64,000 bases of DNA from Oscillospiraceae bacterium (GCA_021202845.1 JAJQCF010000028.1:3796-67795); one strand, 5' to 3'. Counted from the stretch's first letter, positions 4,740 through 57,897 are shown. The notes: a model not told the origin generated them from the sequence alone. A program made the numbers and translations.

Positions 4740-6098
4740 ATGGATACGCAAGAAAAGAAAAACGACTTCACCGAGGGCAGCATTGCCGCGGTGATACTGC
4801 GCATGGCCGCGCCCATGACCGTGGCACAGCTGGTGAGCGTGCTCTACAGCATTGTGGATAGAATGTACCTCGGCCACTTGGAGGGCATGGGCACAATGGC
4901 GCTCACCGGCCTCGGCATAGGTATGCCGCTCATTGTGATAATAAACGCCTTCGCCAACCTCTGCGGCATGGGCGGTGCGCCGCTGTGCTCCATAGACCGC
5001 GGCGCGGGGCGCATTGCCGAGGCGGAAAAGCTCATGGCCAACAGCCTGACGCTGCTGCTCGCGTTCGGCGTGGCGCTGACCGCCGTGACGCAGATTTTTC
5101 TGCGCCCGCTGCTCTACGCCTTCGGCGCGAGCGACCAGACTTACGGCTACGCCGCGGAGTATATGCGCTTTTACTGCGTCGGCTGCATACCCGTCATGCT
5201 GGGGCTGGGTATGCACTCTTTCATCAACGCGCAGGGCTTTGCCAAAATGAGTATGCTGACGACCATATTCGGCGCGGCGGTGAACATTGTGCTCGACCCC
5301 ATTTTCATATTCGCGCTGGGGCTCGGCATACGAGGCGCGGCGCTGGCCTCGGTGCTGGCGCAGACGGCCTCCGCCGTGTGGGTCATGCGTTTTCTCTGCT
5401 CGCGCCGCGCCGTGCTCACGCTGCGCCGCGCGGACATGGCGCCGGATATTAAGCTCTGCGGCAGAATTTTGGCAATGGGTGCCAGCACGTTCGTTATGAA
5501 CTGCACCGCCAGCCTGATACAGATTGTCGCCAACGTCCAGCTGCGGCTTTACGGCGGCGACCTCTACGTCGGCGTAATGACGGTTGTCAACTCCATAGAG
5601 CAGGTGTTTTTCTTGGTGATGAACGGGCTCAATCAGGGCGCGCAGCCCGTCATGGGCTATAACTACGGCGCGCACCGCCACGACCGCCTGCGGCAGGGTA
5701 TGCACTTCATGTGGAAAACTTGGGTCGGCTACGCCACTGCCGTGACGGTTATAATCCTCGTCTTCCCTCGCCCCTTCGCGCTCATGTTCAGCAGCGACGA
5801 GGAGCTGGTGACGCTGGCGGCGCACTCCATAAGGCTCTTCTTCTGCACGTTCATGTTCATGGGTCTGCAAAGCGTGTCGCAGTGCCTGTTCCAGTCGTTC
5901 GGCCGCTCGGGCAAGGCCATATTCTTCTCGCTTCTGCGCAAGGCCATTATTGTTGTGCCGCTGACGGTGCTGCTGCCGCGCTGGGGCTTCGGCGTGGATG
6001 GCGTGTTCTTGGCCAACGCCGTCAGCTGCGTGCTGGGCGGCACCGCCTGCTTTGTCACCATGTACTTCACCGAGTACAGGCGGCTGGAAAAGTGCTGA
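4740..6098 (+). CDS. MATE family efflux transporter
   Basis: 452-aa polytopic membrane ORF. The N-terminus ...GSIAAVILRMAAPMTVAQLVSVLYSIVDRMYLGH... is typical of MATE/NorM-type exporters, and the length fits 12 TM helices. Confidence 0.85.
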   Translation: MDTQEKKNDFTEGSIAAVILRMAAPMTVAQLVSVLYSIVDRMYLGHLEGMGTMALTGLGIGMPLIVIINAFANLCGMGGAPLCSIDRGAGRIAEAEKLMANSLTLLLAFGVALTAVTQIFLRPLLYAFGASDQTYGYAAEYMRFYCVGCIPVMLGLGMHSFINAQGFAKMSMLTTIFGAAVNIVLDPIFIFALGLGIRGAALASVLAQTASAVWVMRFLCSRRAVLTLRRADMAPDIKLCGRILAMGASTFVMNCTASLIQIVANVQLRLYGGDLYVGVMTVVNSIEQVFFLVMNGLNQGAQPVMGYNYGAHRHDRLRQGMHFMWKTWVGYATAVTVIILVFPRPFALMFSSDEELVTLAAHSIRLFFCTFMFMGLQSVSQCLFQSFGRSGKAIFFSLLRKAIIVVPLTVLLPRWGFGVDGVFLANAVSCVLGGTACFVTMYFTEYRRLEKC

Positions 6099-6207
6099 AA
6101 AGCTCCCGCAGTATAGCAGACGCGTAAAAATTTTGCTAAGTTTCTGAAAAATTCACAAAATTCGTAGTGTTTTTTGCTGAGAAATATGGTATAATTGACC
6201 GCATAGG

Positions 6208-8121
6208 GTGAGACTCAACGCATTCCTGACGGAGGTAACAGGCGTGGAATACGAGAAATACATAAGCTGCGAGCGGCTGCCCGACTATGTTTCCGGCAGC
6301 TGCGCCTGCGGCTGGGAGCTGTTCGGCTGCCGCTATGCGGCGGAGCGCGGGGCGTGGCTCTTCACCGTCTATGCCCCCAACGCGGACAGCGTGGAGCTGG
6401 TCGGCGACTTCTGCTCTTGGGACGCGGGAGTGCCCATGCAGCGCGGCGAGAGCGGACTGTGGTACGCCTTTTCCGCCGAGGCGCGGCGCGGTCAGGTCTA
6501 TAAATACGCCGTCACGCACGGAGGCACAAGAGTGCTGAAAAGCGACCCCTACGCCCTGCACTGCGAAACCGGTCCCGCCACCGGCTCCAAGGTCTGGGAG
6601 CTGGACGGCGTGCGGTGGACGGACGGCGCGTGGATGGCCTCGCGCGAGCGGCGGGACATTGCCGCCTCGCCGGTGTCCATATACGAGGTTCACTTAGGCT
6701 CGTGGCGCAAACGCGAGGGGGAGGTCTACCCCAACTACCGCGCCCTTGCGCCGGAGCTCGCCGCCTACTGCGTGAACATGGGCTATACGCATGTGGAGCT
6801 GATGCCGGTGACGGAGTACCCGTTCGAGGGCTCGTGGGGCTATCAGGTGACGGGCTACTTCGCCCCCACCTCTCGCTACGGCACGCCGGAGGACTTCGCC
6901 TATCTCATAAACGAACTGCACCGCGCGGGGCTCGGCGTCATCATGGACTGGGTTCCGGCGCACTTCCCGCGCGACGCCCACGGTCTCGCCGCGTTTGACG
7001 GCACCGCGCTCTATGAGCGCTCCGACCCCAAAATGGCCGCGCACCCCGAGTGGGGGACGCTGATATTCGACTACTCCAAGGGCAGTGTCAGGAGCTTCCT
7101 GCTCTCCTCGGCCTGCTTCTTCGCGCGCAAATACCACATAGACGGCATACGCATGGACGCCGTCAGCTCCATGCTCTACCTCAGCTACGCCAGAGACGAC
7201 TACGTCCCCAACAGCCTCGGCGGGGACATAGACCTCGGCGCGGCAGATTTGCTGCGGCTTATAAACACCCGCCTGCACGCCCTCGGCGTCATCACTGTGG
7301 CGGAGGAATCCACAGCCTACCCCAAGGTGACGGAGAGCGAGGAGCGCGGCGGGCTCGGCTTCACGTTCAAGTGGGACATGGGCTTCATGCACGACACGCT
7401 GGACTATATGTCCCTCGACCCCTACTTCCGCGGCGGCAGCCACAACAAGCTGAGCTTTTCCATGATGTACGCCTTTTCCGAGCGCTATATCCTGCCGTTT
7501 TCCCACGACGAGGTGGTACACGGCAAAAAGTCCATGTTAGACAAGATGTACGGCGACTATGACCAGAAGTTTGCCTCACTGCGCGCGCTGTACGCCTTTC
7601 AGTTCGCGCACCCGGGCAAAAAGCTGACGTTCATGGGCAGCGACTTCGGGCAGTTCATCGAGTGGAACTACAAGCGCGAGTTAGACTGGTTCCTGCTGCA
7701 ATACCCGCGGCATGACGAGATGCGCCGCTTCTTCCGCAAAATAAATCAATTTTACCGCGCCCACCCCGCGATGTGGGCGGCCGACTGCGGCTGGGAGGGC
7801 TTCAAGTGGCTCAACGTGGACGACGCCGACCGCAGCTGCGTGGCCTTCATGCGCATTGCGCCGGAGGGCGAAAGGATAGTCTGCGCCTTCAACTTCACGC
7901 CCAAGGTCTGGGAGCTGCAAATCGGCCTGCCCTCGCGCGGGCGGCTGCAGCTGCGCATAAACAGCGACGAGCCGAACTTCGGCGGCACGGGCGCCAAGGT
8001 CAAGAAGTGGACGGCAGCGCGCGCGGAGCCGTTTTTGGAGCACCCCTGCTCCGCACTGCTTACGCTGCCGCCTCTGGGCGCGGTTTACTACGAATTTAAA
8101 GCCTCCGCAAAAGCTGACTGA
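6208..8121 (+). CDS. glgB: 1,4-alpha-glucan branching enzyme
   Basis: 637-aa ORF with a CBM48-like N-terminus (FTVYAPNADSVELVGDFCSWD) and GH13 catalytic regions (DWVPAHF, GIRMDAV, AEEST, FSHDEVVHGK). The GTG start at 6208 is the first start codon in frame; exact start not verified. Confidence 0.9.
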   Translation: MRLNAFLTEVTGVEYEKYISCERLPDYVSGSCACGWELFGCRYAAERGAWLFTVYAPNADSVELVGDFCSWDAGVPMQRGESGLWYAFSAEARRGQVYKYAVTHGGTRVLKSDPYALHCETGPATGSKVWELDGVRWTDGAWMASRERRDIAASPVSIYEVHLGSWRKREGEVYPNYRALAPELAAYCVNMGYTHVELMPVTEYPFEGSWGYQVTGYFAPTSRYGTPEDFAYLINELHRAGLGVIMDWVPAHFPRDAHGLAAFDGTALYERSDPKMAAHPEWGTLIFDYSKGSVRSFLLSSACFFARKYHIDGIRMDAVSSMLYLSYARDDYVPNSLGGDIDLGAADLLRLINTRLHALGVITVAEESTAYPKVTESEERGGLGFTFKWDMGFMHDTLDYMSLDPYFRGGSHNKLSFSMMYAFSERYILPFSHDEVVHGKKSMLDKMYGDYDQKFASLRALYAFQFAHPGKKLTFMGSDFGQFIEWNYKRELDWFLLQYPRHDEMRRFFRKINQFYRAHPAMWAADCGWEGFKWLNVDDADRSCVAFMRIAPEGERIVCAFNFTPKVWELQIGLPSRGRLQLRINSDEPNFGGTGAKVKKWTAARAEPFLEHPCSALLTLPPLGAVYYEFKASAKAD

Positions 8122-43831: not shown

Positions 43832-43982
43832 GAGCAGCCCTCCTTGACATATTAACTCTTTTTATGAGTTAATTATACCTTGTCGGGAGGAAAAATTCTG
43901 TAAAGCGCTTGACAATCACAGCTTGTTACGGTTACTGCCGAGGTTTGTGACAAAGGACGGGGAGGCGTGGTTCTTTCAGCGT

Positions 43983-47056: not shown

Positions 47057-47165
47057 GGAGGAAACCATATGGAAGACAAGCAAATTGCGCTCAAGCCGTC
47101 CGCCGACCCGTTTTATTCCACGGACATATCGACAAGCGGAGTGGGGGAAATTGGAGGGGTGGGGG

Positions 47166-47183
47166 TTAGTTAGAATTGACTAA
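47166..47183. promoter_or_regulatory. TTAGTTAG-AATTGA-CTAA palindromic box (candidate DtxR-like operator)
   Basis: Contains TTAG-N6-CTAA (47170..47183), preceded by a second TTAG. Outer arms are TTAGT/ACTAA. Confidence 0.4.
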
Positions 47184-47301
47184 TAGGGTTTGCAGAAAAT
47201 TGCATTGTGCGACAATGTTGCAGTGATTAAATTATGCAGGGGGTTATTTTGGACATAACGCCGAAAATTTGGTGGGGAGTTAGCGTGGACAAATCTTTTG
47301 C

Positions 47302-47331
47302 TTGACATGATTTGACGCGAGGGTGTATGAT
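47302..47331 (+). promoter_or_regulatory. Candidate promoter TTGACA-18-TATGAT
   Basis: Read directly. Lies in the 600-bp intergenic region ahead of the NEAT-like genes. Confidence 0.4.
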
Positions 47332-47407
47332 TGAGGCGTGACGTAAGGGAGACCTGACGTGCGGTGCGGAAGCAGAGAAATGTTTGTGAAAAATGAATGA
47401 AAATCGT

Positions 47408-47431
47408 ATCCGGCGCGTGACCGGATTTTTC
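47408..47431 (+). terminator. Intrinsic terminator-like hairpin
   Basis: ATCCGG-CGCGTGA-CCGGAT followed by TTTTTC. Confidence 0.5.
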
Positions 47432-47439
47432 AAAGATGC

Positions 47440-47457
47440 TTAGTTAGAATATACTAA
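47440..47457. promoter_or_regulatory. TTAGTTAG-AATATA-CTAA palindromic box (second copy)
   Basis: Near-identical to the box at 47166 and overlaps a possible -10 (TATACT). Lies about 205 nt upstream of the NEAT-like gene start. Confidence 0.4.
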
Positions 47458-47662
47458 CCGCCCTGAAAACGGAGAGGGGTTATGAGAGAAACGGAGCGTC
47501 GGCGGATACGGTGGGCGGCAATGCGGGGCCGGGTTCGCATAAACTAACCTCCCGTGCCGGTCAGCATTTGGTATGCGTTCACGAATAGAACCGAACGGAA
47601 AATCTCCCTCTGTAAAAACCACATTTTGCCGCCGGACAAATCCGGCAGAAAGGAGTCAGAAA

Positions 47663-48118
47663 ATGACTGCAAGACGAAACCTCAAACGGGCAGGAGCCCT
47701 TGTGCTCGCCCTCGCCATGTGCTTCGCACTTGGCGCAACCGCGCTGGCCGACACCGACGTTGGCACTTACAGCGTGACTATCTATCAAGACGGCACGACC
47801 ACAAAATCTATGGCAGATGGCTGCATGGGTGACGCAACCGTTACCCTGTCCGGCACAACCTACACTGTATCCATTCCTCTCACCACCATAACAATGACTT
47901 ACGGTGATTCCACTTACGTCGGAAAAATTACTGATATTGAAATTGAGCAAGCGACAAAATGCAGTGCAGAAGACGATACACTTGTTTTCACTGTATCCAG
48001 CGATGATTTTGCGGAACTCACATTCGATGCCACCATGTCTGTCACTGTTACTGCCATTTCCGGCAGCGGCGGGTATACACATGATAATGTTGCCGCCGAT
48101 ATTGTTTTGAGCAAGTAA
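47663..48118 (+). CDS. Small secreted protein with a single NEAT-like domain (hemophore-like)
   Basis: ATG at 47663 follows AGGAG. It has a signal peptide (MTARRNLKRAGALVLALAMCFALGATALA/DTD) and then about 120 aa: GTYSVTIYQDGTTTKSMADGCMGDATVTLSGTTYTVSIPL...SVTVTAISGSGGYTHDNVAADIVLSK. This follows the NEAT pattern (G.Y.V.f......SMa....a.l.v..g.y.v.l ... Y.h....l). There is no anchor motif. Confidence 0.7.
   Translation: MTARRNLKRAGALVLALAMCFALGATALADTDVGTYSVTIYQDGTTTKSMADGCMGDATVTLSGTTYTVSIPLTTITMTYGDSTYVGKITDIEIEQATKCSAEDDTLVFTVSSDDFAELTFDATMSVTVTAISGSGGYTHDNVAADIVLSK
47750..48115 (+). repeat. Copy 1 of a roughly 366-bp duplicated NEAT-like coding module
   Basis: Long runs of perfect nucleotide identity with 50939..51304, for example a stretch of about 100 nt through CTATCTATCAAGACGGCACGACC...ACTGTATCCATTCC. 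The central third has diverged. Confidence 0.9.
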
Positions 48119-48217
48119 TAACCCCCAACACTGTAGAGGTGCTGTCTCAAAATGGTCTTATAAATCACAAGAGACAGCATCTTCACATTTTCAAATTACA
48201 AACATAAAGGAGTAAAT

Positions 48218-51200
48218 ATGGATATTAAGATATTCAATTTTAGACGCATAACATCCATTTTATTGGTTGCCGTCATGCTTCTTCTTTTCTTGCCGGCGGG
48301 CGTTTTTGCTTCTGATGATGAAGCAAGCGCTGCCGGAGAAAGCGAAACTGCTGCTGTAGAAAGCGCGGAGGCAGAAGCATCAACTGATGCAGACGACGAG
48401 ACTACAGAAACTGCCGAAGCTGCGACAACAGAGACTGCTGAAAACGAAATGAGCACTGATGAAAGCGGCACTGAGGAAAGTTTGACTATCGAAAATTCTC
48501 AAACCGAGGAAACAGAGACATCTGGAGAAAGTGAGGATGCCTCTGCTGCAGAAAATGAAGAAACCTTGATTTCAGTGGCTTCTGCAGAAGCCGAAGAAGA
48601 TACAGGCGCTTATATTGCGGAGGTTTCATATTCTCTCAATGACAGCACCGAAACAGTTAATGTTGCAGACACAGACAGTTTGGTTAATACGCTGGCTGAC
48701 ATTGACACAAGTGCAGCAGATGTTAAGGTAACGTTTTTGAATGACGTTGAATCCGAATGGGCTTCATACGAAATTCCCTGCTCTCTTGAGATAGACCTGA
48801 ACGGAAAAAACGTGTATTTAACCGGGTTATCCAGCGGCACGGCATTTACCATTTCGGCGGATTCTAATTATACCCTGACTGTTTCCGACAGTTCTGAATC
48901 GAATACCGGCGTACTCAAAACAGACGGTGCGGTGTTTAATACGAATGCAGGCACCAAATTGATTATCAATGGCGGAACTTTCATATCAGAAGGTTCTCGT
49001 GTGGTTGTATCTGAAGGCGAGTTGGTTATAAATGGGGGCAATTTTGAGAGTGCAACTGCTAAATCAACAATTCAGTTTCAAGGAACAAGCGCATACATAT
49101 CAAACTGTGATGTTAGAAACCTCTACTCAAGTTCAACCAAAGGGTTTGGAGCTGCTCTTGAGTTATTGAGTTCCGAATATTGTGAAAGTTTTTATTTAAA
49201 AGATTCACAACTAAGTTCCGGCGGCGGAGGTTGTATATACTTCCAGTCACCTCAAGACGAGGTTATATACAATATTGATTCATGCAATGTGGTCGGCGTC
49301 TACGATGCGATTTACGTTAAAAATAATGCAACAGGCGGGACCATTAACCTGCTCGGAGACACAACGCTATACAGCGAAAGCGGCGCGGCGGTGGAATTGA
49401 GAAAATCAGGAACCGGCCTCACGCTCAATTTTTCTGATACTGTTAAGGTGAGTTACAGTGACGCATCAATTCCCGTATTGCCGAGCAGCGCCGTTGCTGC
49501 CTTTCCGGCAGACGAGGACGGAAACCAAATGGTATTTAGTACAGAAGCCGACACCGACGGTTACTACAGCTTTGTAACAACCGCAGGCGTTGTACAATAT
49601 ATGAACGGCTACGAGTATCAAGGTTATCAGTATTTTGGAGACTTTGATGAAACCCTCGCAAGCTCAGAGGAAATTTACAATGCGGGGAATGACGACTCAT
49701 CTTGGGGTTCAGCGCTGTGGAAGGCGTTTAAAACGGCCTATGAAAACGCCTTGGCAGTGAAAGACAACACCAACGCCAACCAGAACGAGATAGACTACTT
49801 CGCAGACGCACTTGCCGCCGCATTGCTTGATTTGAAAGAAAGCAAGGCATCAACAATTAACTTTGACAGTCTGCTCAACGGCGACTACAACGTGAATGTC
49901 TCCATGTGGAACATCGGCTTTACAAATTACTCCATGGCAAATGGCGCGATGAACGAAGACGCGGTTCTGCACATCGGCGACGACGGCGCGTCCGTTACTC
50001 TCACCTTCCACCCGACAACGGCGCTCTTCACCGTCGGCGCGATGACAAACCTTTGGGTATACGAGGGCGAGAGCTTTGAAGCCGGTTACGCCAACCGCGT
50101 TGCGGGAGAAGGGCGCGTTGAGGGCACCTACGGCGACTGGTACACCTATGCCATTGACGACGAGGAAAACCTGACCTACACCACCGAGGCAGCCGAGGAG
50201 GACGCCGACGGCGCGCGCCCCGGCAGCGTCACCATTCCGCTCTATTACCTCGGCACTGACAGTGAGAGCAGAAAAATTTGCGTGCGCATCTCCGTTGACG
50301 TAATGACAGAAATGGGCGTTGGCGACCAAGACGCGATACTCTATCTGGATTACAGCAGCATATCCGCCGTGACGGACACGCTCAGCACCTCGCTCCGCGT
50401 GACGAACAGCGACGGCGAGAGTGCCGAGGACGCAATCACTATTGCCGCAGACAACGAGGGCGACGTGACCCGCACCGTCACGCTGCTGCAGGCGGCGGGC
50501 AGCGGCTATGTCCTTAGCCTCGAAAACAGCAATACGGACGCTGTCTCCGCCGTGCTTGGCGAAGCTGCGACCGAGAGCACAGAGATAGAACAGCTTGACA
50601 TGACCGTGGAGTCCTCGTCCCAGACCCTGACTATCGCAGCGGCGGAGGGACTGGAGGGCACGCAGACCGCAACACTGACGCTGACCGCGACAAACGGCAA
50701 CGACACGCTGACAAAGACCATAGAAGTGACCGTTTCCAGCGAAAAAGCTGTGAAGGTTGAAAGCGTCACCGTCGAAGACGCGACCGCAACCGCGACCCTC
50801 AGCGGCGGCGTTGTGGCGGAAAATGACACCGTGAGCGTCAGCGGCTCCGTCGTCACCGCCGACGCGACTACAGGCAATGCAGACGTCACCGCGGTGAACG
50901 TAATAATTCCGCAGAGCGTGGCCGCCGCGGTGCTGGGCGACACCGCTGTTGACACTTACAGCGTGGCTATCTATCAAGACGGCACGACCACAAAATCTAT
51001 GGCAGATGGCTGCATGGGTGACGCAACCGTTACCCTGTCCGGCACAACCTACACTGTATCCATTCCGCTTACCAGCATCACAATGGATTACGGCGACTCC
51101 ACCTACAGCGGAACGATTTCTGATATTAAGATTAAGCAGGCAAGTGATTGCGATGTGATAAACAATACACTTGTTTTCACTGTATCCAGCGATGATTTTG

Positions 51201-53233
51201 CGGAGCTCACATTCGATGCCACCATGTCTGTCACTGTTACCGCCATTTCCGGCAGCGGCGGGTACACACATAACGATGTTGCCGCCGATATTGTTTTGAG
51301 CAAGGCATCATCAATGCTGGGCGGCTACAGCTCTCTGGTGCTGGCGACCGACGTCGGCAGCGTAACGCTGGACAGCGATATTCTTGCGGGCATAACCGAG
51401 ACCGCAACGCTGACGATTGCCGTCAACAGCACTTACAGCAACTATACCGACGACGACGGCCACGTGTTTGTCTGCGGCTATGACCTGACCCTGAGCACGG
51501 ACTTCAACGGCGGCACGGCGACAGTGAGCGTCCCCTGCGAGAGCACAGATGTTGTTTACGCCTACTGCATAGACGACGACGGCTCCCTTGCCGAGCGCGC
51601 GGCGCTGACCGTAGTCAGCGGCTATGCGAGCTGGAGCACCACCCACTTCTCCACTTGGGCGCTGAGCGAAAAAGAGTACACAATCAGCTCCGGCAGCTCG
51701 TCCGGCGGCTCTTCCGGCGGCTCCTCCAGCAGCACAAGCAGCAGCTTCCTGAACACCGACGGCAACTACCTTGTGACAATCACACTGTACAAGGAGAGCG
51801 CAAACGAGGTTTCCATGGGCGACGTGGCCTTTGAGTACAACCGCAGCGCGCTTGTGACGGTTTCCGGCGGCGAGATAACCTATGTAGAAATTGCCACCAA
51901 CCCCGTCAAGGTTGACCTGTATGTGAGCGCCATGACCGCGCTGGCTCTCACGAACGGCGGAGACGTAGAGGTTCTGGAGCGCGGCGACTTCTCCACAAGC
52001 TACAACGGCACGACCACGAACACATACGAGGACGACAACGGCTACATCAAGCGCGCCAGCTTTGACATGCCCGACGAGGGACAGCCCTCCACGGCGGACT
52101 CCGTGACGTATATCGACGTTACCTTTACCGTTCCCGACACGCCGATGGACGACCTCTATGAAGAGCTTGCCGCGCGTATTCAGTTCGACTGGAGTACCGC
52201 GACAAAGACGAGCAAGAGCCACCTGACCGCTAACACCTCCACCGCGACAGGAAGCAGCAGCAGCGGCGGCGGAACGGCGACCACGGTTGAGGACATTTCG
52301 CTGACCGACAGCGCCACCGGCATCAAACTGGAGACCAACACCAACCGCCTTGACAGCGAGGCGGAGCTGAGAGTTACCGTAGTCACCGAGGGCGACGATT
52401 ACGACAACGCCGCCTCCCTGATGGGTACAGACGACGAGTGGACGCTGTACGAAATTGTCGCGTTGGTTGACGGCACGGTTACAGCTCCCAGCGGCAGCGT
52501 GACGCTGTATATCCCCTGCACCGACGAGGAAGGACTGACCGTCTACCGCATAAACGACAGCGGACGCACCGTCATCAAGGGCTCCGTCAGCGGCAGCTAC
52601 TACACCTTCACCACCAGCTCCCTCGGCCTGTTTGCGATAATCGGCAGCGTGGCCGACGCGGACGAAATTGTTCAGGTCTCCGAGAGCGGCTTCACGGACA
52701 TCGTGGGCCACTGGGCGGAGGAGTACATCGAAACGGTTGTGCAGCGCGGTCTGTTCAACGGCACGGGCGAGACGACATTCGACCCCGACAGCGGCCTGAC
52801 GCGCGGAATGTTCGTGACGGTTCTCGGACGGCTGTACGGCATTGACGCCGAGGCGGAGTTCACCAACGCCTTTGGCGATGTGGACGCCGAGGCATACTAC
52901 GCGCCGTACATAGCTTGGGCGAGCGAAAACGGCATTGTCAACGGCACGGGTGACGACACGTTCGAGCCCGACCGCGAGATAACCAGACAGGAAATGGCGA
53001 CCATAATGAGCCGCTACTTCGAGTTCGCGGAAATCACTCCGCTGGACGGCGAGGCGGTCAGCTACGCCGACGACGCCGACATTGCGGACTGGGCGCGCGA
53101 GGGCGTTGAAAACATGACGAAGGCCGGTTTGTTCTCCGGCACGGACAAGAACGAATTCAACCCGCTCGGCACAGCAACCAGAGCCGAGGCCGCGACGGTG
53201 TTCGCAAGGCTCATAGGCAGCTATGGTCTGTAA
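48218..53233 (+). CDS. Large SLH-anchored surface protein: signal/TM, acidic linker, beta-helix-like region, three NEAT-like domains, two Ig-like modules, three SLH domains
   Basis: 1671-aa ORF. A repetitive NGG/beta-helix-like segment lies at about 48785..49630. NEAT-like segments lie at about 49860..50360 (GDYNVNVSMWNIGFTNYSMANGAMNEDAVLHI), 50939..51304 and 51752..52195 (GNYLVTITLYKESANEVSMGDVAFEYNRSALVTV). Three SLH repeats at 52688..53230 begin FTDIVGHWAEEYI, FGDVDAEAYYAPYI and YADDADIADWAREGV. Confidence 0.85.
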   Translation: MDIKIFNFRRITSILLVAVMLLLFLPAGVFASDDEASAAGESETAAVESAEAEASTDADDETTETAEAATTETAENEMSTDESGTEESLTIENSQTEETETSGESEDASAAENEETLISVASAEAEEDTGAYIAEVSYSLNDSTETVNVADTDSLVNTLADIDTSAADVKVTFLNDVESEWASYEIPCSLEIDLNGKNVYLTGLSSGTAFTISADSNYTLTVSDSSESNTGVLKTDGAVFNTNAGTKLIINGGTFISEGSRVVVSEGELVINGGNFESATAKSTIQFQGTSAYISNCDVRNLYSSSTKGFGAALELLSSEYCESFYLKDSQLSSGGGGCIYFQSPQDEVIYNIDSCNVVGVYDAIYVKNNATGGTINLLGDTTLYSESGAAVELRKSGTGLTLNFSDTVKVSYSDASIPVLPSSAVAAFPADEDGNQMVFSTEADTDGYYSFVTTAGVVQYMNGYEYQGYQYFGDFDETLASSEEIYNAGNDDSSWGSALWKAFKTAYENALAVKDNTNANQNEIDYFADALAAALLDLKESKASTINFDSLLNGDYNVNVSMWNIGFTNYSMANGAMNEDAVLHIGDDGASVTLTFHPTTALFTVGAMTNLWVYEGESFEAGYANRVAGEGRVEGTYGDWYTYAIDDEENLTYTTEAAEEDADGARPGSVTIPLYYLGTDSESRKICVRISVDVMTEMGVGDQDAILYLDYSSISAVTDTLSTSLRVTNSDGESAEDAITIAADNEGDVTRTVTLLQAAGSGYVLSLENSNTDAVSAVLGEAATESTEIEQLDMTVESSSQTLTIAAAEGLEGTQTATLTLTATNGNDTLTKTIEVTVSSEKAVKVESVTVEDATATATLSGGVVAENDTVSVSGSVVTADATTGNADVTAVNVIIPQSVAAAVLGDTAVDTYSVAIYQDGTTTKSMADGCMGDATVTLSGTTYTVSIPLTSITMDYGDSTYSGTISDIKIKQASDCDVINNTLVFTVSSDDFAELTFDATMSVTVTAISGSGGYTHNDVAADIVLSKASSMLGGYSSLVLATDVGSVTLDSDILAGITETATLTIAVNSTYSNYTDDDGHVFVCGYDLTLSTDFNGGTATVSVPCESTDVVYAYCIDDDGSLAERAALTVVSGYASWSTTHFSTWALSEKEYTISSGSSSGGSSGGSSSSTSSSFLNTDGNYLVTITLYKESANEVSMGDVAFEYNRSALVTVSGGEITYVEIATNPVKVDLYVSAMTALALTNGGDVEVLERGDFSTSYNGTTTNTYEDDNGYIKRASFDMPDEGQPSTADSVTYIDVTFTVPDTPMDDLYEELAARIQFDWSTATKTSKSHLTANTSTATGSSSSGGGTATTVEDISLTDSATGIKLETNTNRLDSEAELRVTVVTEGDDYDNAASLMGTDDEWTLYEIVALVDGTVTAPSGSVTLYIPCTDEEGLTVYRINDSGRTVIKGSVSGSYYTFTTSSLGLFAIIGSVADADEIVQVSESGFTDIVGHWAEEYIETVVQRGLFNGTGETTFDPDSGLTRGMFVTVLGRLYGIDAEAEFTNAFGDVDAEAYYAPYIAWASENGIVNGTGDDTFEPDREITRQEMATIMSRYFEFAEITPLDGEAVSYADDADIADWAREGVENMTKAGLFSGTDKNEFNPLGTATRAEAATVFARLIGSYGL
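50939..51304 (+). repeat. Copy 2 of the duplicated NEAT-like coding module (inside the large surface protein gene)
   Basis: See copy 1. The encoded peptides differ mainly in the middle (ITMTYGDSTYVGKITDIEIEQATKCSAEDD versus ITMDYGDSTYSGTISDIKIKQASDCDVINN). Confidence 0.9.
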
Positions 53234-53331
53234 ACATTCGCACCTAAAGCAAAAACAGTAATCCCAAACACCTTGCCGGACGGCGGAGGGGCAAACCTCT
53301 CCGCCGCCTCGGCAGGGCGTAAACCGTTTTC

Positions 53332-53359
53332 AAAGCCGCAGAGACAGCTTTGCGGCTTT
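53332..53359 (+). terminator. Candidate terminator after the large surface protein gene
   Basis: Stem AAAGCCGCA / TGCGGCTTT. A second GC-rich hairpin lies at 53282..53305. Confidence 0.45.
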
Positions 53360-53386
53360 GAAAACAGCTTATGCGGAGGCAGGATA

Positions 53387-54205
53387 ATGAAGGAATTAAC
53401 CGTAAGACAGATGGAGTATCTCCTGCTGTTTGCAACCCACAAATATTCCGAGGCGGGCATGACGAGCGCCGCGGACGAGTTCGGAGTGACAAAGGCGACG
53501 GCCTGCGTCACCGTTGACGCGCTCGAAAGGGCGGGCATGATTACCCGCGGCGAGCTTGGCGAAATCGCGCCCACCGAGGTGGGCGGCGAGATTATAGCGC
53601 CGAGGGTGAAGGCGTTCCATATAGTCAGCGGCTGGATGATGGAGCACATGGGTCTGCTGCCGATAAGAGCGGAGCAGGCCGCAAGGACAATAGTCTGCTC
53701 GCTGGACGACGATATAATCGAAAAATTCCTTAAATATAACAATCAGCCCGCCGCGCCGAAGTCGGAGAGCGAGGATGCCCTTCTCGAAAATCTGCCATAC
53801 GGCGTTTATACGGTGGACTTTGAGGTGAGAAAAAAAGGCAGGACGGAGCTGTCTATGGCAAACGCCGGCTTTCTCAAGCCGGCAATGGCTCTGCGGGAAA
53901 ACGAACGCAGCCTTTTCACGCTCTGCCCTATAAGCATAACGCGGAACATTCGCCTTATGCCCAAACGCTCGGCCATTCTGGAAACGATGTGGTATTACCA
54001 CGGCGACTCGTGGCGCGAGGCGCAGAGCTCTCCCACGGGAGTGACGATTCCCGGGTACGCGATGCGCTTCGACCCCGTTCGCAAGACAGCAACAGTGCGC
54101 GTGCGCATGAGGACGTCCATTTCCCTGCGCTATATGCCGGAGAGCGAGGCGGACATCGTGTTTTTCCTCACCTCATGTGCGGAAGATGAGAAAGTATACT
54201 TATAA
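53387..54205 (+). CDS. DtxR-like winged-helix regulator fused to a C-terminal NEAT-like domain
   Basis: ATG at 53387 follows GGAGG. Residues 1-115 align by eye with the DtxR/MntR N-terminal and dimerisation regions (RQMEYLLLF...AADEFGVTKATACVTVDALERAGMITR...KAFHIVSGWMMEHMGL). Residues from about 135 onward (nt 53789 onward) read GVYTVDFEVRKKGRTELSMANAGFLKPAMALRENERSLFTL...TVRVRMRTSISLRYMPESEADIVFFL, which is NEAT-like. No signal peptide. Confidence 0.75.
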   Translation: MKELTVRQMEYLLLFATHKYSEAGMTSAADEFGVTKATACVTVDALERAGMITRGELGEIAPTEVGGEIIAPRVKAFHIVSGWMMEHMGLLPIRAEQAARTIVCSLDDDIIEKFLKYNNQPAAPKSESEDALLENLPYGVYTVDFEVRKKGRTELSMANAGFLKPAMALRENERSLFTLCPISITRNIRLMPKRSAILETMWYYHGDSWREAQSSPTGVTIPGYAMRFDPVRKTATVRVRMRTSISLRYMPESEADIVFFLTSCAEDEKVYL

Positions 54206-54235: not shown

Positions 54236-55195
54236 ATGAGAGCAAAAACATTTGTATCCGCGCTGCTGTGCGCCGCGCTGCTGGCGGGCACTGCGGCGGT
54301 AAACGCAATGGCGCTGCAAACGGGAGCCTACACCGGCAGCGTGACAACCAGCTACTATAACCCCGACACGGGAAATGTTGACGACGGCGGTACGTCCAAC
54401 GCCGCGCTGGGCGAGGGAATGTGCCGCTCCGCCACCGCAAAAACGGGGCTTGTGGAAATAGACGGCGACGGAAACGTGTGGGTCACCATTCGCCTGCAGC
54501 TCCAAAGCAGCTGCAGCAACGTGGCGTTCTACACGCGCACGGGCTACGACAGCTATTCCAAGGTCAGCTACACCATTACCGCCGAGGACAGCGGCAATGA
54601 CTCCATAGACTACCGCTTTGCGATTCCCAGCGCCGGCACCTACATAAAGGCCACGATGTATGTGACGCCTATGGGGCGCGACGTGCTGTGGTATCTCTGG
54701 GTAGACACCTCAACGCTTACTTCCGGCAGCGGAGATTTTGTTGTGAGCATAGACCTTTCCGAATCCGCGGCTCCAACCGAAACAGAGGCTCCCGCGGAGA
54801 CTGCCGCGCCCGCCGAAACAGAGACACCGGACGAAACGCCGACGCCCGCCGAGACGCAGATGGCGGCTGAAACCGAGTCTCCGGCGGAAACGGCGCAGCC
54901 CGCCGCGGCCGAGCAGACCGCCGAGCCTGCCGCAGCCGAGTCTCCGCAGGAGACGACGGAGGCCGTAAGCACGGACGAGGACGACGCGGCGGACGTTAGC
55001 TCCGACGTGAGCGCCGCCGCGCCCGTCGAAGCCGACGAAGCCGACGAGGCCGCGAGCTCTGCGGACAGTGCCGACGAAGCGGAAAACGCGGACGAGGAAA
55101 GCCCCGCCGTATCCGGCGCTGTAATCGCTGTCATCGTGGTCATAGCCGCCGCGGCAGCAGTCGGCGCGGTATGCTGTGTGAAAAGGAAGCGGTGA
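54236..55195 (+). CDS. Shp-like heme-binding cell-surface protein with acidic linker and C-terminal TM anchor
   Basis: Signal peptide present. YNPDTGNVDDGGTSNAALGEGMCRS... and ...ATMYVTPMGRDVLWYLWVD match my recollection of Streptococcus pyogenes Shp (YRHPISGQIEDSGG...GQGMVEG and MFVEPMGREVVFYL), including both Met ligand positions. A PAET-rich linker follows, then AVIAVIVVIAAAAAVGAVCCVKRKR. Confidence 0.8.
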   Translation: MRAKTFVSALLCAALLAGTAAVNAMALQTGAYTGSVTTSYYNPDTGNVDDGGTSNAALGEGMCRSATAKTGLVEIDGDGNVWVTIRLQLQSSCSNVAFYTRTGYDSYSKVSYTITAEDSGNDSIDYRFAIPSAGTYIKATMYVTPMGRDVLWYLWVDTSTLTSGSGDFVVSIDLSESAAPTETEAPAETAAPAETETPDETPTPAETQMAAETESPAETAQPAAAEQTAEPAAAESPQETTEAVSTDEDDAADVSSDVSAAAPVEADEADEAASSADSADEAENADEESPAVSGAVIAVIVVIAAAAAVGAVCCVKRKR

Positions 55196-55198
55196 GCT

Positions 55199-56167
55199 AT
55201 GAGAAGGATTATTCTTGTCTGCATTGCCCTGTCCTTGGCTCTGGCGCTCTGCGCCTGCGTTGACCAGCACCCCGAAGAAGATACAGCGGCGGAAAGCACC
55301 GCTGCGGCGGAAAACGCGGCCGCGAATGAAGATGTGGAGGAGCCTGCGCGCATTATAGCGACGTCTTACTCAACCATACTTATATGTGACAAGCTGGGGC
55401 TTGACCTTGTGGCCGTTTGCTCAACCTCCGGCGAGCTGCCGGAGCGCTATCAGGATTTGCCCACCGTCGGCACGGCCATGTCTCCCGATGCGGAAGCCAT
55501 AGCTCTCTTGGAGCCGACGGATGTTATCGGCCCCGACACGCTGGCCGAGACAATAGAGCCTACATATCAGGCAGCGGGGGTGCCCTACACCTTCATAGAT
55601 TTGCAGAGCGTTCAGGGAATGTACGACAGCATTGCCATGCTGGGAGAAAAATACGGCGTGTCGGAGGCCGCCGATACGCTCATTGCCGAATATGAGGAAA
55701 TTTTAGCGGACTTCCAAACAAGCATTGAGGGCGAGGAGCAGCCGACGGTGCTGCTGCTCATGGGTCTGCCCGGAGCTTACATAGAGTGTACGCCCAACTC
55801 CTATGCCGGTTCGCTGCTGGAGCTTGCGGGAGCGGTGAACGTGGTACAGGTTGACGACGAGATGAACTTTGTCTCATGGAACACCGAGGAGCTTTTGGCG
55901 CTTGACCCCGATTACATACTGCTGACGGCTCACGGCCTGCCGGAGCTGGCTATGGAAATGTTCGCCGAGGAGTTTACTACCAACGACATTTGGAAGCATT
56001 TCAGAGCTGTCGAGGACGGGCACGTATATCAGCTTGACTATACGCTCTTCGGCATGAGCTGCACGTTTGACTGGCCGGAGGCGCTTGCAGTTTTGCAGGA
56101 AATACTGTACAGCGAAACATATGAGGCTTACGACGCGGAGGCTGCCTACCTTGAAAACAATTCATAA
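55199..56167 (+). CDS. Heme/siderophore-type ABC substrate-binding lipoprotein (Peripla_BP_2, HtsA/SiaA-like)
   Basis: Lipobox LALCAC. Class III binding-protein pattern (IIATSYST...LDLVAV...LEPTDVIGPD...). Sits directly after the Shp-like gene, as in shp-htsABC. Confidence 0.8.
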   Translation: MRRIILVCIALSLALALCACVDQHPEEDTAAESTAAAENAAANEDVEEPARIIATSYSTILICDKLGLDLVAVCSTSGELPERYQDLPTVGTAMSPDAEAIALLEPTDVIGPDTLAETIEPTYQAAGVPYTFIDLQSVQGMYDSIAMLGEKYGVSEAADTLIAEYEEILADFQTSIEGEEQPTVLLLMGLPGAYIECTPNSYAGSLLELAGAVNVVQVDDEMNFVSWNTEELLALDPDYILLTAHGLPELAMEMFAEEFTTNDIWKHFRAVEDGHVYQLDYTLFGMSCTFDWPEALAVLQEILYSETYEAYDAEAAYLENNS

Positions 56168-57146
56168 GGACATTTTCAAAGGTGTGGTCGGCTGCGCTGT
56201 GCTTGCCGCAATGATTTTTGCACTGACGCTGATTGCCATGAAACTCGGCAGCATCAGCATTACATACGGCGATTTGTTCAATGGCCTGTTCGTAGCCTAT
56301 GATAAACGCGTTGCGGTTATATATGACCTGCGGTTCCCGCGCATTATAGTAGCGCTGCTGGGCGGCGCGGCGCTGAGCTGCTCGGGACTGCTTTTTCAGG
56401 CTGTTCTGCGCAATCCGCTGGCCGACCCCGGCATTATCGGAATATCCGGCGGAGCCTCTCTGGCGGCGTCCGCTGTGACGGCGCTCTTCCCCGCGCTGTA
56501 TTTATCCGTACCGCTCATTGCCTTTTTTGGCGGTCTGGCAGCGTTCGCGGTAATATATTCTTTGTCATGGAAGGGCACGCTTGACCCCGTGAGGATTATC
56601 CTTGTAGGAATTGCCGTTGCCGCAGTGTTCACCGGACTTGGCGAGGTGCTGAACGGCATTGCCGACAGCACAGGAGTGTCGGTCAGCGTCAGCGGGCTTT
56701 CCCAACTCGTGTGGTCCGACGTGCGCATGATGGCGCTGTATTCCGCTGTCGGAATAGTGCTGGCCGCCGCACTGTCTCCCGCCTGTAATCTGCTGGCACT
56801 GGACGACAAAACTGTTCGCGGCCTCGGCGTTCGCGTTGACCGTCTGCGGCTTACCATTTCCGCCGTTGCCGTTCTGCTGGTAAGCGGCGTGACCGCGGTT
56901 ATCGGCGTAGTGGGTTTCCTTGCGCTTATTGTGCCCCATATGGCGCGGCGAATTGTTGGCTCCGACCATAGAGTGCTTGTGCCGTTTTGTGTCCTGCTGG
57001 GCGGCTTCGTCCTGCTTCTTGCCGACACAGCGGGGAGGCTGATTGCTTCCCCCAACGAGATTTCCGCAAGCATTATTATGAGCATAGTAGGCGGCCCATT
57101 CTTTATCTTTCTGCTCAAGCGAGGCGACAGACATGGTAAGCATTGA
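56151..57146 (+). CDS. FecCD-family ABC permease
   Basis: Polytopic ORF with RNPLADPGIIGISGGASL and other motifs typical of FecCD/BtuC. I prefer the TTG at 56151, after GGAGG; the track ORF begins at 56067. Confidence 0.85.
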   Translation: MKTIHKDIFKGVVGCAVLAAMIFALTLIAMKLGSISITYGDLFNGLFVAYDKRVAVIYDLRFPRIIVALLGGAALSCSGLLFQAVLRNPLADPGIIGISGGASLAASAVTALFPALYLSVPLIAFFGGLAAFAVIYSLSWKGTLDPVRIILVGIAVAAVFTGLGEVLNGIADSTGVSVSVSGLSQLVWSDVRMMALYSAVGIVLAAALSPACNLLALDDKTVRGLGVRVDRLRLTISAVAVLLVSGVTAVIGVVGFLALIVPHMARRIVGSDHRVLVPFCVLLGGFVLLLADTAGRLIASPNEISASIIMSIVGGPFFIFLLKRGDRHGKH

Positions 57147-57897
57147 ACATCTCACATTCTCCTATGACGGCCGGCCCGTATTGAATGACCTCTCCATTAA
57201 GATTAAAGACGGCGTAATAACCACCCTTTTGGGGGCAAACGGCTGCGGCAAAACCACGCTCCTGCAGCTGATGACAAAAAACCTCAAGCCGACTTGCGGA
57301 GCGATAAAGCTGGACGGCAGAGAGCTTAAAGACATATCGGTTAAAGAGTTTGCCCGCCGAGCGGCGATTGTTCATCAAAAAAATATAGCTCCCGACGACC
57401 TCAGCGTGGAGCGCCTTGTCAGCTATGGACGTCTGCCGTACAGCTCAATTTTCAGGCCGGGGCTGAACGAGGAAAATCAGGAGCAGGTGGAGCGGGCATT
57501 AAAGCTGACGAATATGGATACGCTGCGCGAGCGGCACGTTGGAACACTCTCCGGAGGACAGCGGCAGCGAGCGTTTATTGCAATGGCTCTGGCGCAAAAT
57601 ACGCGGCTGCTCTTTTTGGATGAACCGACCACGTTTCTCGATGTGCGTTATCAGGTGGAAATACTGCGCTTGGTAAAAACGCTGAACAAAGAGCAGGGCA
57701 TCACGATAGTCATGGTGCTCCACGACATCAATCAAGCGCTGACCTACTCGGATGAGGTGATAGGACTGCACGGCGGGAAGGCCGTTTTGCAGGGTGCTCC
57801 CGAGGATGTAATCAGCACGGAGAGCATACGCACGCTTTACGGCGTAGAGCTCCCGGTTTTTCACAGCGGCGGAAGGCTCTGCGTTATGGCGGTATAG
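57133..57897 (+). CDS. Heme/siderophore ABC transporter ATP-binding protein
   Basis: Walker A GANGCGKTT, signature LSGGQRQR, Walker B LLFLDEPT, H-loop VLHD. Confidence 0.9.
   Translation: MVSIEHLTFSYDGRPVLNDLSIKIKDGVITTLLGANGCGKTTLLQLMTKNLKPTCGAIKLDGRELKDISVKEFARRAAIVHQKNIAPDDLSVERLVSYGRLPYSSIFRPGLNEENQEQVERALKLTNMDTLRERHVGTLSGGQRQRAFIAMALAQNTRLLFLDEPTTFLDVRYQVEILRLVKTLNKEQGITIVMVLHDINQALTYSDEVIGLHGGKAVLQGAPEDVISTESIRTLYGVELPVFHSGGRLCVMAV

Follow-up and report, generated by a model that had tools for sequence, protein, structure and literature searches.

Receptors with several NEAT domains and hemophores with a single one are known in pathogens, and we know of no documented case in which one of them originated from the other; heme acquisition in uncultured gut Oscillospiraceae is, to our knowledge, essentially unstudied. 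A stretch of 64,000 nucleotides from an Oscillospiraceae bacterium (GCA_021202845.1 JAJQCF010000028.1:3796-67795), which was analyzed at its full length and is called the window here, carries within a heme-uptake operon a small gene (47663..48118) for a secreted protein of 151 aa with one NEAT-fold domain, followed directly by a giant gene (48218..53233) for a surface protein of 1671 aa, and the two genes share a nearly identical module. This module probably reached the giant gene as a recent domain graft from the small gene, in combination with allelic recombination in a strain-variable block of low G+C content (GC).

As in Bacillus anthracis IsdX1/IsdX2 (PMC2515342; PDB 3SIK, 4H8P), the gene of a small secreted one-NEAT protein lies beside that of a multi-NEAT protein in a heme locus, the profile of the module family finds IsdX1 (E = 4e-4), and IsdX2-N5 is among the best fold matches. 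By contrast, the B. anthracis proteins carry the motifs SXXXXY and YXXXY, whereas SMADGC stands in the lip of the module and YTHDN in its last hairpin; IsdX2, unlike the giant protein, has no SLH anchor; and the NEAT domains of IsdX1 and IsdX2 are old, diverged paralogs, whereas the pair described here would be a nearly identical recent graft. A precedent for the SLH anchoring is B. anthracis BslK, with NEAT and three SLH. The gene string also resembles Shr-Shp-HtsABC (sia) of Streptococcus pyogenes, in which a receptor with NEAT, a Shp-type protein, an IsdE/HtsA-type protein with permease and ATPase, and ATP-binding cassette (ABC) exporters occur together. Unlike the sia operon, the locus has an extra small secreted NEAT-fold gene upstream, and its giant is anchored by three SLH repeats and, according to Pfam, lacks the Shr-type DUF1533 and leucine-rich repeat. 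The absence of YXXXY is shared with the NEAT domains of the clostridial group, all of which are without it (Honsa et al., 2014; PMC4143258), and with ChtD/ChtE of C. perfringens, which bind heme all the same (Choo et al., 2016; PMC5026354). Unlike the clostridial group, the module family also lacks the lip tyrosine, the Pfam match in this genome is below threshold and the host is an uncultured member of the Oscillospiraceae. Within-species NEAT clusters have been attributed to duplication (Honsa et al., 2014; PMC4143258); here the duplication would have run from a free gene to a receptor gene, instead of yielding a tandem domain repeat. The locus falls within the known NEAT hemophore/receptor systems and the known mosaic evolution of surface proteins, and holds little surprise for a specialist.

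The homologous segment comprises copy A in the small gene (47744..48115) and copy B in the giant gene (50933..51304, with the module itself, N2, at 50939..51304). The two copies are 372 bp long and align without gaps, with 42 mismatches (88.7% identity in an ungapped comparison). The homology starts where the signal peptide of the small protein is cleaved (ALA|DT) and stops at the last sense codon of the small gene. An initial annotation of this DNA had described a nearly identical module in the two genes, with identical runs at both ends and a substituted middle; this was borne out by the alignment, in which the homology starts 6 bp upstream of the 366 bp then reported, and both peptides quoted for the middle section were correct. 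Uniform divergence, which would have spoken against a mosaic, was not what the alignment gave. The mismatches are strongly clustered, with 5 in 47748-47777, none in the perfect run 47778..47877 (100 bp, also the same in the giant genes of two further strains), 31 in the divergent patch 47878..47975 (98 bp, residues 73-105, predicted strands 4-6) and 6 in 48016-48086, and the perfect runs at the 3' end are of 40, 35, 23, and 29 bp. When 42 mismatches were placed at random over 372 sites 100,000 times, a perfect run of at least 100 bp appeared with a frequency of 1e-5 and a 98-bp window with at least 31 mismatches never appeared, so that the clustering of identity and divergence is significant (p about 1e-5, permutation). 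Only these two copies were found in the genome (2.24 Mb, 37 contigs, 99.35% complete), at both the DNA and the protein level, and the family-profile search of the genome returned no further module copy, its extra matches being signal peptides only. A third genomic copy as the donor of the patch was thus ruled out.

Three related loci belong to the same species-level group as the window: L005 (GCA_021203555.1; 97-98% identity to the window), with the small gene; L006 (GCA_965306355.1; about 96% identity), with both genes; and L007 (GCA_021202595.1), with the giant gene from within the module onward. Their small genes are called small5 and small6 and their giants giant6 and giant7, and the genes of the window are called smallW and giantW. 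The proteins of the closest relatives carry the NCBI label Oscillospiraceae bacterium, from metagenome-assembled genomes (MAGs). The small gene lies directly upstream of the giant also in the more distant L008, L010, and genome G277. A word-index protein search gave no match with the module region of the giant and, with the giant fragment of L007, that fragment alone; scans of genome contigs and metagenome contigs detected no relative.

The direction of the copying was read from L010. Its giant, with the small gene upstream, is colinear with the giant of the window minus exactly aa 905-1033, and the host halves abut there (...TDTAAA|LAAYETTVETDVG...), where the window reads ...QSVAAA[VLG...SSM]LGGYSSLVLATDVG.... 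In the window, the insertion is bounded by two 8-bp direct repeats TGCTGGGC spaced by 384 bp, or 128 codons: the left one (50931..50938) encodes VLG, and at the right one (51315..51322) the host sequence resumes as LGGY, against LAAY in the insertion-free ortholog. The first codons of the insert, GTG CTG GGC (VLG), have no role inside the giant and match the end of the signal peptide in L005, GTG CTG GCC (VLA; small5 reads GTGCTGGCC). Module N2 is also a compositional island: its GC at third codon positions (GC3) is 0.56, whereas the adjoining 400-bp stretches have 0.74 and 0.79, and the module of the small gene has 0.475. A model of the host region of L010, of low confidence (predicted local distance difference test score, pLDDT, 60.9), suggests that the insertion lies on the boundary preceding a beta-sandwich domain. 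Together, the L010 ortholog, the GC3, the direct repeat and the VLG codons point to an origin of the giant's module from the small gene, by in-frame insertion at microhomology. Recent duplication had been offered in the initial annotation as an alternative; a recent copy is the probable reading, while the diversifying change tied to it finds no support (see below), and the polarity from small to giant is new.

The small gene would then be the older of the two, as four lineages have it directly 5' of the giant. In a recent ancestor of the species, a linker of the giant would have received an in-frame copy of 384 bp comprising the last three signal-peptide codons and the whole mature domain, at junctions sharing TGCTGG(G/C)C. 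The empty site of the giant before the insertion would read GCG|CTGGGCGGCTAC, and the wall-anchored protein would have gained the domain of the secreted one.

In mosaic surface-protein paralogs shaped by recombination or gene conversion, nearly identical tracts alternate with diverged ones, and the allele structure depends on the strain. Ongoing conversion between the two paralogs was the first explanation put forward for this locus. In this account, which also allows for episodic conversion, N2 would be long established in the giant. Stretches of the small gene would be replaced again and again by conversion from the giant, or the other way round, and the centre of smallW would have been spared. 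Such a history would suit a 100-bp perfect run adjoining a patch that is 30% diverged. It would also suit the varying giant-like extent of the small gene, which covers nearly all of it in L005, the flanks only in the window and the first ~90 bp only in L006, and the giant states that small5 shows at the majority of those patch sites at which smallW and small6 agree on another state. The comparison with the related strains, however, showed no sign of ongoing conversion in the genomes compared. At three flank sites (47763, 47777, and 48016) and two patch sites (47941 and 47953), smallW and small5 differ from giantW, giant6, and giant7; these sites stay paralog-specific in all strains, and small6 has the small-type state at 47763 and 47777. 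By these sites, smallW has flanks of small-gene type and not of giant type. Under concerted evolution, paralogs within a genome would be closer than orthologs and paralog-specific sites would be erased; instead, the flanks of smallW and giantW differ at 10/264 positions, against 4/264 both for smallW and small5 and for giantW and giant6, and the giants are grouped in the flank tree with 85% support. N2 has moreover retained the low GC3 of the small gene within a host gene of high GC3, and a conversion tract ending exactly at the stop codon is unlikely, as downstream homology is absent.

The variation seen in L006 also argues against conversion. From about 47830, the identity between the window and L006 drops from ~96% to 42-70% (measured to 48099), and between 48110 and 49622 (giant codon 468) no DNA match is detectable. 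This strain-variable block (47830..49622) covers all but the 5' quarter of the small-gene module and continues through the intergenic region to codon 468 of the giant; its GC is low in both strains (0.43-0.47, against 0.59 in the window and 0.58-0.61 in the remaining giant). Since the difference extends over 1.8 kb into sequence that is not repeated, the small allele of L006 represents an allelic replacement and not a conversion between paralogs. The mosaic was therefore rightly attributed to recombination, though not to ongoing paralog conversion, and allelic exchange with one recent graft fits the data better than the concerted evolution of mosaic paralogs. We hold the conversion account to be unlikely, while giving it real weight.

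The second explanation offered initially was a recent duplication after which a single patch of the surface changed by point substitutions under positive or diversifying selection; it was addressed by comparing substitution rates in the patch and the flanks. It draws on the concentration of 14 of the 18 amino-acid differences between the copies within residues 73-105, and on the patch of small5 against the giants, with 7-8 non-synonymous and 3 synonymous differences (ratio 0.6-0.7). Between smallW and the giants, by contrast, the numbers of substitutions per synonymous site (dS) and per non-synonymous site (dN) are both inflated in the patch (dS 0.94-0.99, dN 0.27-0.29; Nei-Gojobori). The resulting dN/dS of about 0.3 equals that of the flanks, whose dS of 0.064-0.081 is about 12 times lower, and the idea of diversifying change is accordingly disfavoured. 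Ordinary mutation cannot give 31 substitutions beside 100 untouched bases. Furthermore, small6, itself a divergent allele, has 12 of the patch states by which smallW departs from small5 and the giants, which identifies the patch as old small-gene sequence. Adenine stands in the giant at 9 of the 31 mismatches and in the small gene at 13 (20 transitions, 11 transversions). The target of a diversity-generating retroelement was therefore ruled out, as the mismatches are not confined to template adenines. The selection account is thus very improbable.

Differences were also counted by segment, with each small allele set against the modules of the giants, which are themselves nearly identical (5/366 differences between giantW and giant6). 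For smallW, the differences amount to 4/126 in the 5' flank, 14/57 and 16-17/45 in the first and second halves of the patch, and 4-7/138 in the 3' flank; the corresponding values are 3/126, 3/57, 7-8/45, and 3-6/138 for small5, and 23/126, 27/57, 24-25/45, and 51-53/138 for small6. The dS of the flanks is similar to the background dS between strains in neighbouring genes (0.03-0.19), so the copying event would be about as old as the radiation of the strains. The patch is far older than the copying event. Under the graft reading, it arose neither by new mutation nor as a remnant spared from conversion by the giant, and the 98-bp centre of the small gene would be a piece of an older small allele joined to flanks of the small5 type, through homologous recombination between strains inside the low-GC block that differs wholesale between them.

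That the repeat, or the assignment of each patch to its gene, arose through collapse or chimerism in a short-read assembly, or through mixed strains, is hardly credible, even though the initial annotation was right in calling the repeat an assembly hazard: the L007 contig begins 5 bp inside the perfect run (window-equivalent 50972), and the L005 contig lacks 1,065 bp and breaks off a little further on. Against an artefact, the independent assemblies of L006 and L007 have the same N2 module at the same site of the giant, the flanks of the small gene recur independently in L005, identity between two loci is not something that assemblers produce, and the contig of the window spans both copies and the unique sequence between them. 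The patch of giantW differs from the giants of the two independent assemblies at 0/57 positions in its first half and 0-1/45 in its second half, which rules out an exchange of the two patches during assembly. This indirect evidence favours a correct assembly of the window.

Several points nevertheless weigh against a recent graft with allelic recombination. Among random pairs of windows so spaced in the giant gene, about 1% have an 8-mer in common, which makes the support from the direct repeat modest. The polarity was drawn from one insertion-free ortholog, the composition and the junctions, a precise loss in L010 being formally possible, and an older insertion homogenised once by conversion before the split of the strains would give the same picture. 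The dS of the flanks corresponds to only 4-5 synonymous differences. In small5, the differences from the giants are in excess in the patch (11/102, against 6/264 in the flanks; Fisher test, p = 0.001), so that a single recent copying event is insufficient by itself. The comparison covers four genomes of the species, three of them as MAG contigs, with the giant of L005 and the small gene of L007 missing. As to function, the module is without both canonical NEAT motifs and scores 23.2 bits against a Pfam threshold of 32.8, its heme binding being a deduction from other genes of the operon.

If the graft occurred as proposed, the locus displays, at DNA resolution, the transfer of a free domain into a linker of the neighbouring receptor, with the junction repeat, the fossil of the signal-peptide end and the base composition of the donor still visible. 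It would also mean that a mosaic between paralogs, commonly taken as gene conversion, can stem from a recent graft together with allelic recombination, and that the orthologs of other strains should be examined before conversion is called.

The module was assigned to a divergent subfamily of NEAT-fold domains by its fold and profile matches, as the canonical motifs are absent. With Pfam NEAT (PF05031, gathering threshold 32.8 bits), the small protein remained below the threshold (E = 1e-4), whereas P0008, a family member 36% identical to it, reached 39.5 bits; the link of the module to NEAT is thus one of transitive homology. An exhaustive search of 1.8 billion representative proteins returned 15 relatives, mostly secreted single-domain proteins of 145-175 aa. 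Among solved structures, the family profile matched B. anthracis IsdX1, IsdC, and IsdX2-N5, with E values from 4e-4 to 0.03. An AlphaFold2 model of the small protein, built on the family alignment (pLDDT 86.8), has the eight-stranded immunoglobulin-like beta-sandwich of solved NEAT domains. When it was compared with the PDB by Foldseek, all 14 best matches were NEAT, including IsdC (2o6p), IsdX2-N5 (4h8p), IsdA, Hbp2-N2, Hal, IsdH, and IsdB, with probabilities of 0.92-1.00 and target-normalised template modelling scores of 0.41-0.59 for single-domain chains and 0.16-0.18 for the multi-domain IsdH/IsdB chains.

In place of the lip motif SXXXXY, which is described for NEAT domains in their 3-10 helix (Honsa et al., 2014; PMC4143258), the module reads S49-M-A-D-G-C54. 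The serine (S49) is invariant and the methionine (M50) nearly invariant in the family, and the tyrosine position holds Cys here and mostly Ala in the relatives. In place of YXXXY, the heme-iron ligand motif of the last strand in NEAT domains, the last hairpin reads Y138-T-H-D-N142, where Y138 is not conserved across the family and most members have the His two residues further on (H140). All three conserved residues, S49, M50, and H140, lie within the flanks common to both copies. The locus thereby widens the divergent NEAT subfamily, in which both canonical motifs are absent, the Ser-Met lip is conserved and a His in the last hairpin is frequent.

The operon runs in the order small gene, giant SLH protein, a 310-codon open reading frame (ORF), Shp-like protein, IsdE-type binding protein and ABC importer, followed by a DUF454 protein and two ABC exporter genes. 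The two genes with their repeat copies and junctions, the low-GC block, the hairpin described below and the annotated heme-uptake genes are all on the plus strand. The Shp-like cell-surface heme-binding protein (54236..55195) matched PF11545 with E = 2.3e-46 (157.7 bits, cut-off 26.4). The IsdE-type heme ABC substrate-binding protein (55199..56167) passed the cut-off of the TIGR03659 equivalog (315.5 bits, cut-off 298.65), and its best solved relatives in the PDB are Listeria Lmo2184 and S. aureus IsdE. The FecCD-type permease and the ABC ATPase (PF01032, PF00005) occupy 56151..57897. A Shp domain, an IsdE/HtsA-type protein and a FecCD/ATPase importer thus stand in one gene string, whereas the giant departs from the Shr receptor architecture of N-terminal DUF1533, NEAT1, leucine-rich repeat and NEAT2. 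An Rfam scan of the whole window detected no riboswitch and no other family. From the Shp-type, IsdE-equivalog, permease and ATPase genes and the lack of a riboswitch, the locus was classed as a heme-uptake operon of the Shr/Shp/Hts and Isd type. A corrinoid system was rejected, as the window has no cobalamin riboswitch or other Rfam family and the IsdE equivalog cut-off was passed. The unannotated 310-codon ORF between the giant and Shp-like genes (53273-54205) had no match in Pfam or NCBIfam, and a weak match to the family profile was seen at its residues ~178-298 (E = 5e-4).

The earlier description of a secreted and a wall-anchored paralog was thus well founded, as the two are true paralogous NEAT-fold modules in a heme-uptake locus. 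From the Shp-like and IsdE-equivalog genes of the same operon we infer that the module binds heme, and likewise that the small protein is a secreted heme carrier; the analogy of the pair with hemophore-to-receptor systems is a reasonable hypothesis. The free secreted domain would capture heme outside the cell and hand it to its anchored twin N2, to N1 and N3, then to the Shp-like protein and finally to the IsdE-type importer. A more specific proposal, which we regard as improbable, is that through the graft the free carrier gained a docking station matched to it, with heme handed over by homotypic NEAT-NEAT contact of the identical pocket-forming flanks, and that the hypervariable strand 4-6 patch, with deeply diverged alleles kept in the population, is a specificity or evasion surface. 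If so, the patch might block piracy of the carrier by neighbouring strains or aid escape from phage or host antibody, and the locus would be a natural system for studying the evolution of hemophore-receptor specificity in gut commensals.

The small gene most likely starts at ATG 47663, where an AAGGAG Shine-Dalgarno sequence lies 8 nt upstream, and encodes a Sec signal peptide (47663-47749, ...ATALA|DT), the NEAT-fold domain (47750-48115) and a stop. Its product is identical to protein P0003, and no LPXTG, SLH, C-terminal transmembrane segment or lipobox was found in its sequence, which gives it the layout of IsdX1-like hemophores: secreted, single-domain and anchor-free. Between strains, identity is 90-100% over the 500 bp on its 5' side (47150-47662), which include a strong promoter-like site at 47302-47331, TTGACA-18-TATGAT; the reading frame that prolongs the ORF upstream to 47573 is probably untranslated. 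Between the two genes, a hairpin followed by a U-rich stretch (48132..48187; free energy -23.6 kcal/mol, z -4.3, 0/200 shuffles as stable) was not called in a consensus terminator scan. It is a candidate partial terminator or attenuator, and the small protein may be made in excess through partial termination there.

The giant protein comprises a signal peptide, an acidic tract, a variable N-terminal region, the NEAT-like domains N1 (aa ~552-700), N2 (the inserted module, aa 908-1029), and N3 (aa ~1178-1300), and three C-terminal SLH repeats. The Pfam scan returned only SLH (E = 1.4e-34) and NEAT below threshold (28-29.5 bits for N1), without DUF1533 or leucine-rich repeat. The small gene ends in tandem stops, TAA TAA (48116-48121), and the filler after the module in the giant is GCA TCA TCA. 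Each of the two TCA codons (51308-51313) is one base from TAA, with a shift by one extra codon, and the filler may be a coincidence or a trace of copied stops that came to be read through.

In the first ~468 codons of the giant (48218-49621; 1675-3027 in L006), no DNA similarity between the two strains was seen, the rest of the gene being about 96% identical. The proteins of this region align only loosely, and its GC3 is 0.40, against 0.72-0.80 elsewhere in the gene. The N-terminal region of the giant thus looks like an exchangeable cassette. The sequence of L005 jumps from just past the small gene, in the middle of the hairpin, to the equivalent of window position 49231 (window 48166-49230; L005 10495-10502). 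The giant start codon, the signal peptide and the first ~338 codons are missing in this 1,065-bp gap, and the contig ends 295 bp later; the gap may be a true deletion that inactivates the gene, or else the MAG was misassembled here.

Other irregularities were noted in more distant relatives. In L023 (G277:C16, 10408-13902, minus strand), a giant of another genus lies beside a small homolog; its C-terminal half, including SLH, is missing, and about 100 residues at its end are atypical and low-complexity-looking, which suggests a frameshift or a truncated gene. Two overlapping ORFs (86 and 78 aa) make up P0009, the homolog of the small gene in L024 (71-551), and reflect either a frameshift or a sequencing error in this Logan contig; a second contig break within the module was ruled out here, as the split is by frameshift and not by a contig end. 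Finally, L005 has ~840 bp more (5480-6319) than the window at 43955-43981, with a ToxN_toxin gene (PF13958, 219 aa) that has no counterpart in the window, and this segment, immediately 5' of the FHA-SEDS gene, resembles an abortive-infection insertion of the ToxIN type that varies between strains.

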